From IMG/VR virus record IMGVR_UViG_2895442618_000001, positions 1-64,000 of that record: a stretch of 64,000 bases of DNA. The stretch is one strand, 5' to 3'. A program made the translations under genes and the position numbers. This document shows, in pieces, positions 13,673 through 62,310 of this stretch. Within the stretch, counting starts at the first letter, position 1. Every line of letters starts with the position of its first letter. This DNA comes from a virus. Its lineage: Duplodnaviria > Caudoviricetes. The notes below the pieces were generated by a model. That model did no database searches. It was not told the origin of the DNA and worked only from the letters and a program-made list of their open reading frames with translations.

Positions 13673-13878
13673 CGCGCCTCCCGAACTCGAAAGCAACTCT
13701 TTCCAGTTTGGAAATAGTTGAAAGGGGTCGGGCGGCCATGCCTGGCGACCCGACCCCGTACGTTGCACGGAGGTCCACACGGGCACGTCTGCCCGGCTTC
13801 GCCACCCTCGACCGGAGCCCGTCGACGCCGACCGTGGCGACCGGAGTCTTCACGATTCGAAGACCCCGCCTCCCCGCG

Positions 13879-13953
13879 TACCTGCACCAGGACTCGAACC
13901 TGGGAACCTCCGCATTATGAGTGCGGCGCTCTCACCGACTGAGCTATGCAGGC
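13879..13953 (-). tRNA. tRNA with CAT anticodon (elongator Met or Ile2), CCA not encoded
   Basis: GCCTGCA acceptor, GCTC/GAGC D stem, CCGCA-CTCATAA-TGCGG anticodon arm, CCAGG-TTCGAGT-CCTGG T arm; lacks initiator features. Confidence 0.92.
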
Positions 13954-53157: not shown

Positions 53158-54753
53158 TCAGAACGGCCAGTCGCACGACCTCCCCGCCTCAAGCAGCGGG
53201 ATCAGCTTGAACGTGGAGTCGGAGAACCCGCCGAGCTCGTGCCGGTTCCCGGCGCCGGTCGGCATCGCCGCGTGCTGGTAGCCGACCAAGTTAAACCCGT
53301 ACATCGGGATGTGCTTGGGCGCGGCGTCGGTGACGTTCCCGGCGTAGTAGCCGCTCATCGTCTGCATGTCCGACAGGATGATGACCCTGTCGTGGCCGGA
53401 GTAGGTGCGCTGCACGGACGCGGCGATCTGCGTGCCGTGGCCCACCTCGCCCGTCCGCGCGGCGAATCGCTCCAACTCCCGCAGCACAGACGCGCCCTTG
53501 CCGACCTCGTGCTTGAACACGCTGTCAGCGAAGCCGTACAGGTCCACGCCGCCCTTCACTGCCAGCGACACCCCGAACAACGCCGCGGCCTGCGCCGGCG
53601 AGACGGACGACCTGCCGGAGATACGGCTACCGGTCATCGACGCCGACGTGTCCACGAGCACGAGCGTGCGCCCCTTGAACGCGGGAACGTTCGACGTGGC
53701 CAGGGTGAGCGCCTTGTCGAGCGCGTGACCCCACCGCAGCGACGGAGCATTCAGATACGCCGAGAAGAACCGGAACGGAAGCTGCCGGGAGCGGGCAACC
53801 TCCTCCGGGTTCACCAGCTTGGCGATGATCTGGTCGGCGATCTCGTCGGGGATGCCGGCCTGGTCGAAGTTGCGAAGGTTCCTCAACAGCGCCATGTAGC
53901 CCATCGACGGGATAACCGCCGTCCACGCCTGCGCGTCCATCGGCCCCTGAAGCCAGCCCGCGAGCGCCTCCCACGTCATGCCCGCGTCGGCGAGCGTGGC
54001 GTTGACCGCGGACGGCACGCCCACGGCAACGATCGCGCGGCGTTCGGCGACCGGCATCGACATGAGGTGTGCGCGGCGCCGCAGCATGGCGAGCGACTCG
54101 GGAATGTCGTTGTCGCGGCCGTGGCGCCGGTCGAGCGCGTGCCGGAAGAGGTCGCCCTGCCAGCGCTTCGCCGCGTCCGGCGACGGGTGAACGAGGTCGA
54201 TGACGTCGCCGAACCGGTAGCCCTTGGAGTCGGTGTCGTACTTGAGCAGGTTGCGCTCGTTGTACATCCGCTGGACGGCGTCGGCGATGCCGCGCTTGAC
54301 CGGCTTCGGGATCGCACGCCCGTACGTGGACGTCCAGTAGGCGAGCGCCTCCCCTGGCTCGTCTGGGCGCTGGAGCACTGTGTTCACGAGCTGCCGGTTA
54401 AGGCCCTGCTCGCCCGCGGCGAGACGTGCCTTGACCGCTTCGAGCGCGGCGACGATCGGCGCGGACCGCATGTTCGCCTCGCCGCGCAGCCACGGCAGGA
54501 ACCGGGCCAGCCACTCGCCGTCCTCGATGGCCACCTGGTGGACGAGAGCCCGGAACCGGTTGTCCCGGCCGCCGGCCTTCTCGTAGAAGGTGTCTTCGCC
54601 CACCATGTTCGACACGGCGAGCAGGAAGAGTTCTCCCTTTGCGTCCCTGATGTATCCAGGGGCTCCCTCGTGGGTGCGCCCGGATGGGGTCCGTTCGGTC
54701 TTCACCGGGCTGAACACGGCCGGGCGGGTGGTCGTGCTGTTGAACTTCGTCAT
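53158..54753 (-). CDS. rsr: Ro60/TROVE-domain RNA-binding protein
   Basis: THEGAPGY..DAKGELFLLAV, ANMRSAP, MGYMALLRNLRN, RQLPFRF, vWA MIDAS LVDTSASM, ILSDMQ. Confidence 0.95.
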   Translation of the reverse strand: MTKFNSTTTRPAVFSPVKTERTPSGRTHEGAPGYIRDAKGELFLLAVSNMVGEDTFYEKAGGRDNRFRALVHQVAIEDGEWLARFLPWLRGEANMRSAPIVAALEAVKARLAAGEQGLNRQLVNTVLQRPDEPGEALAYWTSTYGRAIPKPVKRGIADAVQRMYNERNLLKYDTDSKGYRFGDVIDLVHPSPDAAKRWQGDLFRHALDRRHGRDNDIPESLAMLRRRAHLMSMPVAERRAIVAVGVPSAVNATLADAGMTWEALAGWLQGPMDAQAWTAVIPSMGYMALLRNLRNFDQAGIPDEIADQIIAKLVNPEEVARSRQLPFRFFSAYLNAPSLRWGHALDKALTLATSNVPAFKGRTLVLVDTSASMTGSRISGRSSVSPAQAAALFGVSLAVKGGVDLYGFADSVFKHEVGKGASVLRELERFAARTGEVGHGTQIAASVQRTYSGHDRVIILSDMQTMSGYYAGNVTDAAPKHIPMYGFNLVGYQHAAMPTGAGNRHELGGFSDSTFKLIPLLEAGRSCDWPF

Positions 54754-54758
54754 AACGC

Positions 54759-54797
54759 AACGAGCCCCTCTCGAATGTCGATCGAGAGGGGCTCGTT
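54759..54797 (-). promoter_or_regulatory. perfect 16-bp hairpin covering the rsr ribosome-binding site
   Basis: AACGAGCCCCTCTCGA-N7-TCGAGAGGGGCTCGTT ends 5 nt before the ATG. Confidence 0.75.
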
Positions 54798-54805
54798 CAA
54801 GAGAT

Positions 54806-54950
54806 CGCGCCCGAGATCAAGGTCGGCGTAGGTGACTGTTTGTGTGCTCTGCCAACTGAGCTACACCCCGCGTAGTGCGGGGTGACAGGACTTGAACCTG
54901 CGACTCCACCCTCCCAAAGGAAGTAACCCATGCCTGCGCACCGGGCACGC
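54806..54950 (-). ncRNA. yrlA: YrlA-type Y RNA with circularly permuted tRNA-Pro-like domain (copy 3)
   Basis: Terminal Ro stem GCCCGGTGCG...TTGATCTCGGGC; T arm, loop-closed acceptor CACCCCG/CGGGGTG, then D arm. Confidence 0.9.
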
Positions 54951-54965
54951 GCTCTGAAGTTGTAT

Positions 54966-55095
54966 CCCTCCCGAGATCAAGGTGACGGCGGTGTTTGGCT
55001 TGTCCCGCGACGCTCGGCCAGAGCCGAGCACAGGAGTCGAACCTGTCTTGTCAGTTATTGAGACTGAAGTAACCGCAGTCAGCGCACCGGGAAGG
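54966..55095 (-). ncRNA. YrlA-like Y RNA (copy 2) with anticodon-like arm, T arm, closed acceptor and degenerate D arm
   Basis: TCCCGGTGCG...TTGATCTCGGGA; ACAGG-TTCGACT-CCTGT; GCTCGGC/GCCGAGC. Confidence 0.85.
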
Positions 55096-55112
55096 TGCAT
55101 ATCCAGTTGTGA

Positions 55113-55186
55113 GCTTCAGAGATCAGAACGGCGCCGGGTCGGTTTCATTTAGCAGATGAAGGAACCGGAGCCCTCGCACCTGAAGC
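55113..55186 (-). ncRNA. minimal Y-RNA-like element (copy 1)
   Basis: GCTTCAGGTGCG...TGATCTCTGAAGC; shares GGTGCG, GGTT(A/C)CTTC, CGCCG and TGATCTC motifs with copies 2 and 3. Confidence 0.75.
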
Positions 55187-55274
55187 ACTCCCCACCGTAG
55201 CGGTAGGCGTGACGCGTCACAGCCCATTTTCGGGCGGGTCGGGAAAAGTGATGCGATCGCCCCGAGCTATGACA

Positions 55275-59746: not shown

Positions 59747-62310
59747 GCCCCATCACCCTCTCAAGATCCGCTTTCGCCTGGTCGCAGGTCTTCTCGATGG
59801 CGGAGCCGTACACGTGGCTCCGGTTCTGCAGGACAGCCGCCTCGCATCTCTTGCATGTCCACCGGGAGGCGCTGGATGCGAAGGGCGGGTCCCACTCCAT
59901 GGTGTGGCCGAGCGCCTCAGCGTGCTGTACGGGGGATTGGGAGGTCACCGCTCCGTCTCCGTCTCCTCGTGCACCGTCCACTCGGGGACGTCCCGGGACA
60001 CCACGACGGCGTCAACCGGGAGCCCTTTGCGCTTCTGCCACGCTCGGGTGTCGCTCACGGTCGCTCGGGCCGCCGCCAGTCCGGCGTTGCCGAACCCGGT
60101 CAGGTCGTAGACCGTGGCCTGCTTGTCGTCGCGGGTTTCCGGGTCGTAGGCGTAGCCGGTGAAGCGGCAGGCGTACTCGGTGTTGACGTCGGCCACGGCT
60201 CAGCCCTCCTTCGGGGAGTCCGGGAAGACCGCCCCGAGCTTCTGGACAAACTCCTCAAGCACCTGCTCGGCGCGACGCTTCAGCACGTCGGCGTCGTCGT
60301 CCTTCAACGCCTGCGTGTCCAAGCCGGGCAGCTTCGTCCTGAGGGTGTGATCGGGGTCTTCGCGGCGGATCTTCCAGTCGATAGTGAACAGGCAGAGGCC
60401 GCCCACGTAGCCGTTCAGGCTGCTGTACGGGGCGTTCACCCAAAGGATGCGGGGCATCGGGCATCTCCTTGTCGATGAGGGTCTTGTGGATCTGAGCGCC
60501 CTCTCCGCGTTCTGAGCGCGTGCCCGGCCGTACCGGGAGAGGGCTGGGAGGGTCAGTCGTCGGTGTCTTCGGCAGGGGCAGGCTTGCTACCTCGGCGGCG
60601 GTGCCACTCCAGGAACCAGTCGCAGGTACACACGTCGTCGTGGACACCCATCGCGAAGATGAGGTCCGTGTCGCTCATCGACGCGGGATCGGGCGGGGAC
60701 TCGCTCATGGTCGGTTCTCCGGAGGTTGAGGAGTCCCGGAAGGGACTCCGGGACAGAAGGTCACTCGTCCACCACGGAGCCGCCGCCATCGACGTACTCC
60801 CAGATCCACTCCTTCCACTCCTCGTGGACGCGCTCCTCCTGCTGCTCCGAGGTGAGAGCGTTCCACTCGCTCACAGGAATCCCCGTGTCGATCACGTCGC
60901 TGCGCTCGGCGTTCGCCAGGCCGATGCCGAGCGTCACCGCCAGCTTGATCGTCGGCTCGTTGTCCATATCTGACTCCTTGGTCATCGTCGGGGGGTTGGG
61001 GTCCGCTCTCCCGGTAGAAGAGACACCGGGAGAGCGGGAGGGGTCAGGTGTCGAGCGTGAACGCCGGGTCCCACAGGCGACCTGCGTGCAGGTCCACCAG
61101 CTCGGCCGCCCATTCGTCGCCCGCCCGCGCCGCCTTCAGGTGCTCTTGCGCCTGCCCCCACAGCCGGTCCATCAGGCCGGGAGCGAAGAACACCACAGCG
61201 GCGGCGCGCTCGTACCCGAGCGGGTTGGCGTCGGACACCGCCGGCCACCACAGGACGTGCGTGTCGCCCTCGCGGGCTTCGACGCGCTCGGTCGCCGTGG
61301 CGAGCGCTGCGTCGATGCCCCGGATCTTGCGGGCGATCCGTAGGTAGGCGTCAGCGTCTGGGTTGCCGGTGGCGACGAGCTTGCCGAGCATCGCGGTCTC
61401 CTACGTCGAGGGCGGGCATTGGGGTCAGGAAGAGGAGGGGGCCCCTTGCGGGGCCCTTGGGGTCAGCGGGTGGACAAGAACTCGGCGAGGGCGTCCATCG
61501 GCGAGGAGGGTGCCTCAGGACTGGGGTTGGCCAGCGTGGGCAACTCGACCACGACGATCTCGCGGTGCAGCCACGCCACCAGCGCGTCGCTGTCGGTCTT
61601 GCACAGGTCGATCCAGCGCGGACCCGCCTCGGTCTGCACCACGTAGGCGGTGGTCGCGGTCTTGGGGCAGCGCAGGCACGGGTGGCCTTCAGCGGCGCGG
61701 GTGGCGCGCTGGTCTGCGGTGTCGTTCGCGGGCGCCGGAGGCAGGTCGCTCCAGTTGATGGCCATGGCGGGTCAGCCCTGGAAGTACGCGAAGTCGAAGG
61801 TGCAGTCGTTGCCGTCGTTGTCGAGGACCTCGATGTTCCAGGCGACGTCCTCGGACGCCTTCATGAGCACCTTGCCGATCGTCTCGACGCCGGAGGCGGG
61901 CAGGTGGCGGACGACCTTGACGGTCTCGCCGCTGCCCTTGGCGCGGGTCTCGTAGGACAGCGTGAAGACCTTGGCGTAGCGGCCCTGGCGGTCGCGGTTG
62001 AGGGTGCCGAGGTTGATCTCGCGGACGGCGGTGGTCATGTCGTCTCCTCGTTGCTGGGTTTGGTCTACGTGCCCGTCCGGGTCTCGCACCCGGATGACTG
62101 CTGGTCGGGCTGGGCGGCCCCGGTCTCCCGGGGCCCTTGGGGTCTTCAGTCGGTCCACTCGGGGCAGAGGGCGGGCCTCTCCTTCCGGACCGCCGCCCAG
62201 AACTGGTCCTCGCTCTTGGAGTCCATGCCGGCCGAGTAGTCGATCAGCTCCTGGAGGGTGATGTTCGGGTTGTCGGCGAGGAGGGCGGCGGCGGTGAGGC
62301 GGGCGGTCAT
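59739..62310 (-). CDS. array of small early phage ORFs (59739-59948, 59945-60196, 60200-60457, 60553-60708, 60761-60985, 61044-61391, 61463-61765, 61772-62038, 62146-62310)
   Basis: Co-oriented, with RBSs and GC hairpins between genes; no recognised domains. Confidence 0.55.

Follow-up and report, generated by a model that had tools for sequence, protein, structure and literature searches.

Anticodon-type stem-loops of varying identity in Y RNAs encoded beside an actinobacterial rsr gene

What does the tRNA-like module of a bacterial Y RNA engage? The partner of this module has been open since 2014, the published view being that contact is made through the conserved elbow (D and T arms) and that an anticodon loop is absent. 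The question is posed in a new form by a stretch of viral DNA of 64,000 nucleotides (nt) (Caudoviricetes; IMG/VR record IMGVR_UViG_2895442618_000001, positions 1 to 64,000, referred to below as the window), in which three Y RNAs (Y1, Y2 and Y3) are encoded upstream of rsr, the gene for the Ro60 orthologue Rsr. At the same point of each RNA stands a hairpin that resembles a tRNA anticodon arm, with a different triplet in each. We consider it likely, with a probability of roughly 0.78, that these are Rsr-associated Y RNAs whose effector module opens with a mimic of a tRNA anticodon stem-loop, varying in identity from one RNA to the next, and that proteins which read anticodons are engaged in this way.

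Three Y RNAs upstream of rsr

The product of rsr (531 amino acids, 54753-53158) contains a Pfam TROVE domain (E 2.6e-14) and matches PHROG 850, 'RNA-binding protein' (E 1.3e-47). The source genome is that of an 11-Mb actinomycete, and the closest named relatives of its Rsr come from Nonomuraea and Streptosporangium. The Y RNAs occupy the same strand as rsr, 53-433 nt upstream of its start, an arrangement that is repeated at the homologous loci examined. The parts of the array are the following:

55113-55186, minus strand: Y1, a minimal Y RNA of 74 nt, made of an Rsr-type terminal stem and one anticodon-type stem-loop only
55144-55160, minus strand: Y1 anticodon-type stem-loop UUCAU-CUGCUAA-AUGAA, directly after GGUUCC
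54966-55095, minus strand: Y2, a Y RNA of 130 nt with terminal stem, anticodon-type stem-loop, 4-nt variable stretch, T arm, closed acceptor-like hairpin and degenerate D region
55051-55067, minus strand: Y2 anticodon-type stem-loop UCAGU-CUCAAUA-ACUGA, directly after GGUUAC
55012-55046, minus strand: Y2 T arm ACAGG-UUCGACU-CCUGU (55046-55030) and closed acceptor-like hairpin (55029-55012)
54806-54952, minus strand: Y3, a YrlA-type Y RNA of 147 nt, which resembles a circularly permuted tRNA-Pro(UGG) set on a terminal stem of Rsr type
54907-54923, minus strand: Y3 anticodon-arm homologue CUUCC-UUUGGGA-GGGUG, after GGUUAC, placed by alignment to the tRNA-Pro(UGG) of the genome
54846-54901, minus strand: Y3 T arm (54901-54885), loop-closed acceptor hairpin (54884-54864, CACCCCG/CGGGGUG) and D arm (54861-54846)
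53158-54753, minus strand: rsr (Pfam TROVE and PHROG 850)

A first-pass annotation, drawn from the letters of the window alone, had placed a stem with a 7-nt loop directly after a shared GGUU(A/C)C motif in each RNA, and the coordinates and sequences that it gave for the three hairpins proved correct. Its assignment of the loops also holds when they are compared with the anticodon loops of the genome's own tRNAs, extracted with ARAGORN (loops obtained in this way from this genome are called genuine below). The Y1 loop CUGCUAA is identical to that of tRNA-Ser(GCU), the Y2 loop CUCAAUA (a CAA triplet with U37) differs by a single substitution, A37 to U, from CUCAAAA, the loop of tRNA-Leu(CAA), and the Y3 loop UUUGGGA (54918-54912) is identical to that of tRNA-Pro(UGG). 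The 5-bp stem and 7-nt loop are present in the minimum-energy structures of whole Y1 (-27.9 kcal/mol, z -2.5) and whole Y2 as computed with RNAfold. Judged by the features of a tRNA anticodon arm (5-bp stem, 7-nt loop, Y32-U33, purine at position 37), the Y1 hairpin is complete, that of Y2 departs from them by its U37, and that of Y3 has 4/5 pairs, its form with a 7-nt loop containing one U-U mismatch; the 'weaker stem' remarked on earlier in Y3 is accounted for by this missing pair and by a competing tetraloop fold that is more stable. Perfect 5-bp hairpins enclosing a genuine 7-nt anticodon loop occur three times in the window, both strands taken together: in tRNA-Met, in Y1 and at 60712-60728. 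The last of these (plus strand, CGGUU-CUCCGGA-GGUUG, Arg-CCG type) is probably a chance match.

All three RNAs begin with GGUGCG and end with YUGAUCUC, and these ends pair with each other (RNAfold). The module order of the known bacterial Y RNA YrlA (T arm, closed acceptor, D arm) is found in Y3, is found in Y2 with a degenerate D arm, and is absent from Y1. An open acceptor with a 3' CCA was found in none of them, the acceptors of Y2 and Y3 being loop-closed in the gene and Y1 having no acceptor. A scan of the window with Rfam at gathering thresholds (RF00005 included) and with ARAGORN called tRNA-Met only, and none of the three Y RNAs as a tRNA. Against the Rfam YrlA model RF02553, Y3 scored 34.4 bits (E 1.6e-5) and so fell short of the gathering score of 69, the match being limited to model positions 23-87 (T arm, closed acceptor, D arm), and Y1 and Y2 gave no match to this model.

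In Y3 the hairpin can be placed by homology. When the genus was searched at the DNA level with the array, the tRNA-Pro(UGG) gene was matched in nearly every genome (85% identity, 46 nt), and the matching segment spans the hairpin, the variable loop, the T arm and the 3' strand of the acceptor. Set against the tRNA-Pro(UGG) of the genome, the variable loop reads GAGUC versus AAGUC and the T arm is near-identical; after the T arm come the acceptor pair CGGGGUG/CACCCCG, a short closing loop and the D arm. Scored as permuted tRNAs against Y3, Pro(UGG) came first (44), followed by Pro(CGG) (38) and Pro(GGG) (32); no other tRNA scored more than 31. The Y3 hairpin is thus an anticodon arm by descent.

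Each Y RNA would on this reading consist of an Rsr-type terminal stem and an effector module that starts right after the conserved GGUUAC with an anticodon stem-loop mimic. Y1 would be the stem-loop alone; in Y2 and Y3 the stem-loop would belong to a circularly permuted tRNA body that runs from the anticodon arm through the variable loop, the T arm and the loop-closed acceptor stem to the D arm, and the Rsr-binding stem would in effect have been inserted between tRNA positions 26 and 27. The mimicked identities would be Ser-GCU (Y1), Leu-CAA-like (Y2) and Pro-UGG (Y3). Selection across relatives would keep the stem, the 7-nt loop, Y32-U33 and R37-A38 and would favour those combinations of triplet and flanks that occur in real tRNAs. 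The stem-loop would then be part (in Y1 the whole) of the module by which the Rsr-Y RNA particle engages readers of the anticodon loop, with modification enzymes, synthetases and tRNA-targeting nucleases as candidate partners, which the RNA may tether, may titrate or may be cut by.

The stem-loop in related arrays

Homologous arrays were collected from 13 genus-level loci, from 80 loci of Streptosporangiales, Lentzea, Streptomyces, Catenulispora and others, and from 43 viral contigs. The sample comprises about 217 Y RNAs from 94 genomic loci and 35 further Y RNAs from the viral contigs. A 5' GGUGCG and a 3' YUGAUCUCGG are kept in the roughly 217 parsed copies, and the terminal stem covaries at a few positions (in a set of tRNA-like RNAs of Glu type). 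Three main types of Y RNA can be distinguished: small single-hairpin RNAs such as Y1, tRNA-like RNAs such as Y2 and Y3, and RNAs in which the T arm directly follows the motif. Minimal Y RNAs that keep the anticodon-type arm alone account for 55 cases.

Among the relatives with a T arm, the distance between the conserved UAC and the T stem peaks at 21-22 nt (77/156), which equals an anticodon arm of 17 nt plus a variable loop of 4-5 nt. MAFFT aligned the RNAs by UACUUC, which left the two hairpin registers out of phase, and pairs were instead counted in a fixed register, with slid partners and random windows as controls. At the anticodon register 87% of stem cells pair (82 unique tRNA-like Y RNAs), compared with 55% in random windows and 37-56% for slid partners. 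The three outer stem pairs are conserved (UUC/GAG), while the pairs next to the loop covary: pair 30-40 is CG in 53 cases, GC in 17 and UA in 3, and pair 31-39 is AU in 34, UA in 21, GC in 4 and CG in 3. A covarying stem is also seen in Y2 orthologues, those of loci L013, L035 and L037 carrying UCUCA-CUGCUAA-UGAGA. The modal loop length in minimum-energy structures is 7 nt, both in small RNAs (35/55) and in tRNA-like ones (53/94). RNAalifold, run on the Glu-type set, recovered the terminal stem, T arm, acceptor hairpin and D arm; it mis-drew the anticodon-type hairpin because of the out-of-phase registers.

Within the loop, the 82 unique tRNA-like RNAs have Y32 in 87%, U33 in 87%, R37 in 93% and A38 in 90% of cases, and positions 34-36 are near uniform. 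The first-pass annotation had proposed that in homologues positions 34-36 would vary while 32-33, 37-38 and the stem pairing were conserved; this is the pattern observed, with the 7-nt length kept as well, and the homologous loops are not free in length and sequence and do show a YU-NNN-RA bias.

The loops also repeat those of real tRNAs more often than expected. Twenty of 82 distinct loops, from small and tRNA-like RNAs, are identical to genuine anticodon loops, and 27/82 are one mismatch away. A position-independent null model predicts 4.0 +/- 1.8 identical loops and a shuffle of triplets with the flanks kept predicts 9.2 +/- 1.8, with 0/5000 reaching 20. The excess exists in each class separately, in stem-loop-only RNAs (12/33, 3.2 to 7.2 expected) and in tRNA-like RNAs (15/41), while hairpins outside the expected register, which served as an internal control, gave 0/17. 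Distinct loops of the form CU-NNN-AA are genuine in 17/20 cases, against 24/64 by chance (P 1.8e-5). As in real tRNAs, G36 is associated with G37 (odds ratio 18.8, P 3e-5), and flanks match the triplet (UU-NGG-GA for Pro, UU-CAG-GU for Leu, UU-UUG-GU for Gln, AU-GGU-AA for Thr and UU-CGC-AU for Ala). That the hairpins are mimics of anticodon stem-loops and differ within an array, as had been claimed from the window alone, is therefore supported by their register, their loop signature, the excess of genuine loops and the G36-G37 association. Hairpins of this kind are present in more than a hundred related RNAs.

Identity of the loop is not strictly kept between relatives: the orthologues of Y1 share its stem and motif (loci L005-L012), and on this same stem are found the triplets GCU, UCC, CCA, CCU, GUU and GUC. 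This turnover is what neutral sites would be expected to show at this divergence (Rsr 55-84% identical), so that diversifying selection is not proven. Triplets are repeated within none of 34 distinct arrays, where 2.25 repeats would be expected, a difference that is not significant (P 0.09). Loops of Glu type (CUCUCAA or CUUUCAA) are carried by about 11/24 of the Glu-type RNAs. The simple idea that every Y RNA directly copies one particular tRNA was rejected, the best-matching tRNA body (D, variable and T regions) sharing the anticodon of the loop in 5/90 cases.

The same features recur in other branches of the family. A second rsr (TROVE) is present on another contig of the same genome (G000:C21, locus L003, minus strand, about 2640-2200) with its own array of three Y RNAs. 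These belong to the classic GNCGAA/GGUUAUC subfamily, and their loops CUGUAAA, CUUCUAA and UUCGGGA are exact copies of those of Tyr(GUA), Arg(UCU) and Pro(CGG), respectively. Going by sequence, the source genome is predicted to display six different anticodon-type loops on Y RNAs. With respect to the YrlA motif GNCGAAN0-1G, the RNAs of the window have GGUGCG(A/C) followed by purines and no exact GNCGAA, whereas GGGUCGAAU of the second array fits. Across the genomes of the family, 6/14 distinct loops of the GNCGAA/GGUUAUC subfamily are genuine (0.6 to 2.2 expected). The experimentally validated YrlA of M. smegmatis appears to have an anticodon-type hairpin too, by our own reading of the published probe: the complement of the 5' probe (PMC4201824) is UUACCA-CUUCUAA-UGGAA, with a loop of Arg-UCU type.

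On viral contigs, 7/15 distinct loops are genuine, and the Ser-GCU loop stands on five different covarying stems. Streptomyces phage Quantum encodes three Y RNAs upstream of a Ro-like gene, one with a Cys-GCA loop and one with a loop of Gln-CUG type on a D arm like that of tRNA-Gln.

In the lytic actinophages GiJojo (locus L158) and Neville (a Gordonia phage, locus L160) the Ro-like gene lies inside or beside a tRNA gene cluster, and in Neville a nucleotidyl transferase gene is also nearby. Two GiJojo genes (PP725410.1, 9796-9870 and 9110-9187) are annotated as 'tRNA-Arg(cct)' and 'tRNA-Trp(cca)', and neither is found by the Rfam tRNA model. The former is the immediate upstream neighbour of the Ro-like gene; it overlaps with a Y-RNA-like element (GAUGCGUAG...GUUACUUC) and is probably a Y RNA annotated as a tRNA. 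In Neville a Y-RNA-like 5' motif (GAUGCGAAG...GUUACUUC, L160 1893-1930) starts 30 nt before the start of the Ro-like coding sequence (1923) and crosses it; this start may be annotated too far upstream, as has been reported for a gene at the M. smegmatis rsr locus.

Candidate functions and rival explanations

As the comparative data show selection for an anticodon stem-loop of real identity, we infer that one or more anticodon-reading proteins engage the Rsr-bound RNAs. A number of points weigh against the main reading as a whole. The U37 of Y2 is non-canonical, and degraded loops (C37, U37, pyrimidine-rich) occur in many relatives; small Y RNAs of Streptomyces have pyrimidine-rich loops without R37, the loops of Y1 orthologues include CUUCCCA, CUGCUGG and one of 12 nt, and some phage Y RNAs (GiJojo) have no clean 7-nt loop. 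The minimum-energy hairpin of Y3 is the tetraloop form CUUCC-UUUG-GGAGG, which pairs part of the 'loop', and the Y3 clade offers no covariation by which to choose between the two folds; in this predicted structure the anticodon-type loop of Y3 may be partly paired or buried, and hence not displayed. Body and loop identity agree only for Glu, Pro and one Ile type. The Y RNAs were gathered by regular expressions on their end motifs rather than with a covariance model, and the hairpin list used for the tests of loop identity sought 7-nt loops only. Since the sequences are related, the P values are too optimistic, an effect that is limited by counting each distinct loop once.

Engagement of anticodon readers could serve several ends. 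The first-pass annotation had seen in the loops decoys or baits. In a fuller form of this reading they would be decoys, baits or sensors that, bound to Rsr, target anticodon nucleases and other tRNA-targeting toxins, with one target tRNA per loop, and the arrays and their variation between strains would be the product of an arms race. We regard this as possible but rather doubtful. The loops do copy those of real isoacceptors and differ within arrays, and triplets change fast between close relatives on unchanged stems, yet this turnover is at the level of unconstrained sites and is by itself no sign of diversifying selection, and degraded loops (U37, C37) are common. The array stands in a phage-like region (PHROG matches), homologous modules are found on the 43 viral contigs, and the Ro-like gene of GiJojo and Neville lies within their tRNA clusters; against this, bacterial genome assemblies contribute most of the loci examined. 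A role of phage tRNAs in countering anticodon nucleases has been reported (PMC10264068, PMC11555353), and in Salmonella rsr and yrlA form one operon with RtcB that responds to damaged tRNAs (PMC7790460). The lack of any other conserved neighbour points to a self-contained, mobile module; a stoichiometric decoy, however, would have to compete with the abundant tRNAs of the cell. The 'non-chargeable' nature that had been ascribed to the decoys is not established, as YrlA of M. smegmatis is cut by RNase P and receives CCA (PMC4201824). A broader version, according to which the Rsr-Y RNA arrays of actinobacteria and their phages would be a modular display of chosen anticodon stem-loops on Ro60, acting as decoys or cleavage sensors for toxins or defence nucleases, with the triplet setting the enzyme and arrays diversifying by loop change, strikes us as marginally less probable again. 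Other possible functions are the tethering of modification enzymes or synthetases and a purely structural role.

Three other explanations we rate lower. The hairpin 5' of the T arm could be the equivalent of a variable arm (V), with the Rsr-binding stem standing in for the anticodon stem and the anticodon resemblance without meaning, which we hold to be improbable. Class II variable arms have short loops (3-5 nt) and lie 1-2 nt from the T stem; these features are not found here, where the modal loop has 7 nt and a spacer of 4-5 nt leads to the T stem. Moreover, in Glu-type RNAs the D stem and the closing helix are about 11 alignment columns apart, compared with 1 nt in tRNA and in Salmonella YrlA, and together with the spacing and the loop size this argues that in the actinobacterial RNAs it is the hairpin, and not the Ro stem, that is the anticodon arm. 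Nor would a variable arm be expected to have the loop signature, the matches to genuine loops or the homology to tRNA-Pro and tRNA-Glu that runs across the arm. What speaks for the variable arm is that Chen et al. (2014) label the stem-loop V, that the crystal structure of Salmonella YrlA puts the Ro-proximal stem in the position of the anticodon stem, and that the Rfam YrlA model pairs GUGG of Y3 with CACA directly after the D arm, which fits a V fold with the tetraloop hairpin. It is just as improbable, in our view, that the hairpin is the relic of the anticodon arm of an ancestral tRNA or tRNA dimer, kept as a stable hairpin whose loop has no role. A dimeric tRNA origin has been proposed, going by a citation in 10.1101/312249, Y3 and the Glu-type RNAs still resemble specific tRNAs, and the one-mismatch loops are as common as decay would make them. 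Relics would not explain why minimal Y RNAs keep this arm alone and have genuine loops in excess, nor why lineages with Rsr proteins of only 55-60% identity still have the flank signature and follow the G36-G37 rule; recent copying is no explanation for the loops either, as the stems (UUC...GAG) are peculiar to Y RNAs and do not reproduce those of tRNAs. Finally, Y3 might be processed and charged by prolyl-tRNA synthetase like tRNA-Pro, which we find very hard to credit. A C1-G72 pair is typical of bacterial tRNA-Pro, and Y3 has it in a 7-bp acceptor stem, along with G35-G36 in the loop and tRNA-like D and T arms; but the acceptor 3' strand is followed by C, where the tRNA-Pro of the genome has A73, the anticodon stem is weak, and Y1 and Y2 are without the parts needed.

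The reading of the hairpin as an anticodon arm departs from what has been published on YrlA. Chen et al. (2014; PMC4201824) described mimicry of the D arm, T arm and acceptor and called the hairpin 5' of the T arm a variable arm, and Salmonella YrlA 'lacks the anticodon loop' according to Wang et al. (2018; 10.1101/312249), who put the Ro-proximal stem where a tRNA has its anticodon stem. The first-pass annotation had taken YrlA for a mimic of the elbow formed by D arm, T arm and acceptor, in agreement with both papers. It knew of no array varying in anticodon loop, and our full-text literature searches likewise found no report of such arrays or of anticodon-loop mimicry in Y RNAs, the review of Sim et al. 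2020 (PMC10870794) being outside their coverage. The RNAs of the window share with YrlA (RF02553; S. Typhimurium, M. smegmatis and mycobacteriophages) the location beside rsr on the same strand, the terminal stem with a Ro60-binding motif, the permuted order of T arm, loop-closed acceptor and D arm, a conserved UA 5' of the module and the presence of several copies per locus. In contrast to published YrlA, the hairpin here matches anticodon arms in register, size and loop signature and often in its exact sequence, its identity varies, and it stands alone in minimal Y RNAs. For Yrn1 of D. radiodurans, and for no other Y RNA, Chen et al. (2014) noted that a potential 'anticodon arm' with a 5-bp stem can be drawn; this one, however, has a 6-nt loop and is placed in the other orientation, between the T and D arms, and was reported with neither an anticodon identity nor comparative support.

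Two further kinds of system invite comparison. Phage-encoded tRNAs set against tRNA-targeting defences (PMC10264068, PMC11555353) are also phage-borne, and the anticodon loop matters in that conflict over tRNA cleavage, but they are functional and chargeable, whereas the RNAs described here are not detected as tRNAs, have a closed acceptor or no tRNA body and carry an Rsr-binding stem. The tRNA-like structure of turnip yellow mosaic virus and transfer-messenger RNA with SmpB, which are treated in a passage of 10.1101/312249, likewise copy the anticodon domain and the elbow in molecules that are not tRNAs; these have free CCA ends and roles in translation or replication, while here the mimic is attached to a helix that binds Ro60 and exists in many isoacceptor types.

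In a large group of actinobacterial and actinophage Y RNAs, the module would then include (or, in minimal Y RNAs, consist only of) a selected copy of a real anticodon stem-loop that varies in isoacceptor. Anticodon mimicry would narrow the candidate partners to readers of the anticodon loop, and the 74-nt Y1 with loop swaps offers simple reagents for finding them. If the partners are tRNA-targeting nucleases, Ro60 particles would be linked to the conflict between phage and host over tRNAs. A Ro-binding stem at the 26/27 junction of an otherwise complete permuted tRNA would also bear on the origin of Y RNAs from tRNAs.

Surroundings of the array

The genes next to the array in the window match phage families (PHROG). 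Searched by blastn against phage records, the array returned tRNA-like fragments only. All-versus-all clustering of the neighbouring open reading frames revealed no gene besides rsr that is kept next to the arrays across lineages; 9 loci, all from a single genus, make up the largest cluster, and neither rtcB nor toxin genes are among the conserved clusters. Two further elements flank the Y RNAs:

54761-54795, minus strand: strong hairpin of about 14 bp between Y3 and the rsr start codon, seen in the sequence, with a weak Rfam hairpin match only
55209-55220, minus strand: palindrome GTGACGCGTCAC, about 25 nt upstream of Y1, seen in the sequence

The position of the hairpin is kept at loci L005-L014, and it could be a terminator of Y RNA transcription or an occluder of the rsr ribosome-binding site. 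The palindrome GTGACGCGTCAC also precedes the first Y RNA at loci L007, L011, L013 and L035-L038 and looks like a candidate operator in the promoter region of the array. The spacers between the Y RNAs, UCACAACUGGAUAUGCA (about 55112-55096) and AUACAACUUCAGAGC (about 54965-54953) on the minus strand, are highly conserved in the genus-level arrays, which suggests processing sites in a single precursor. The sole true tRNA gene of the window, that of tRNA-Met(CAU) at 13878-13953 on the minus strand, is a possible integration site of the prophage-like region.

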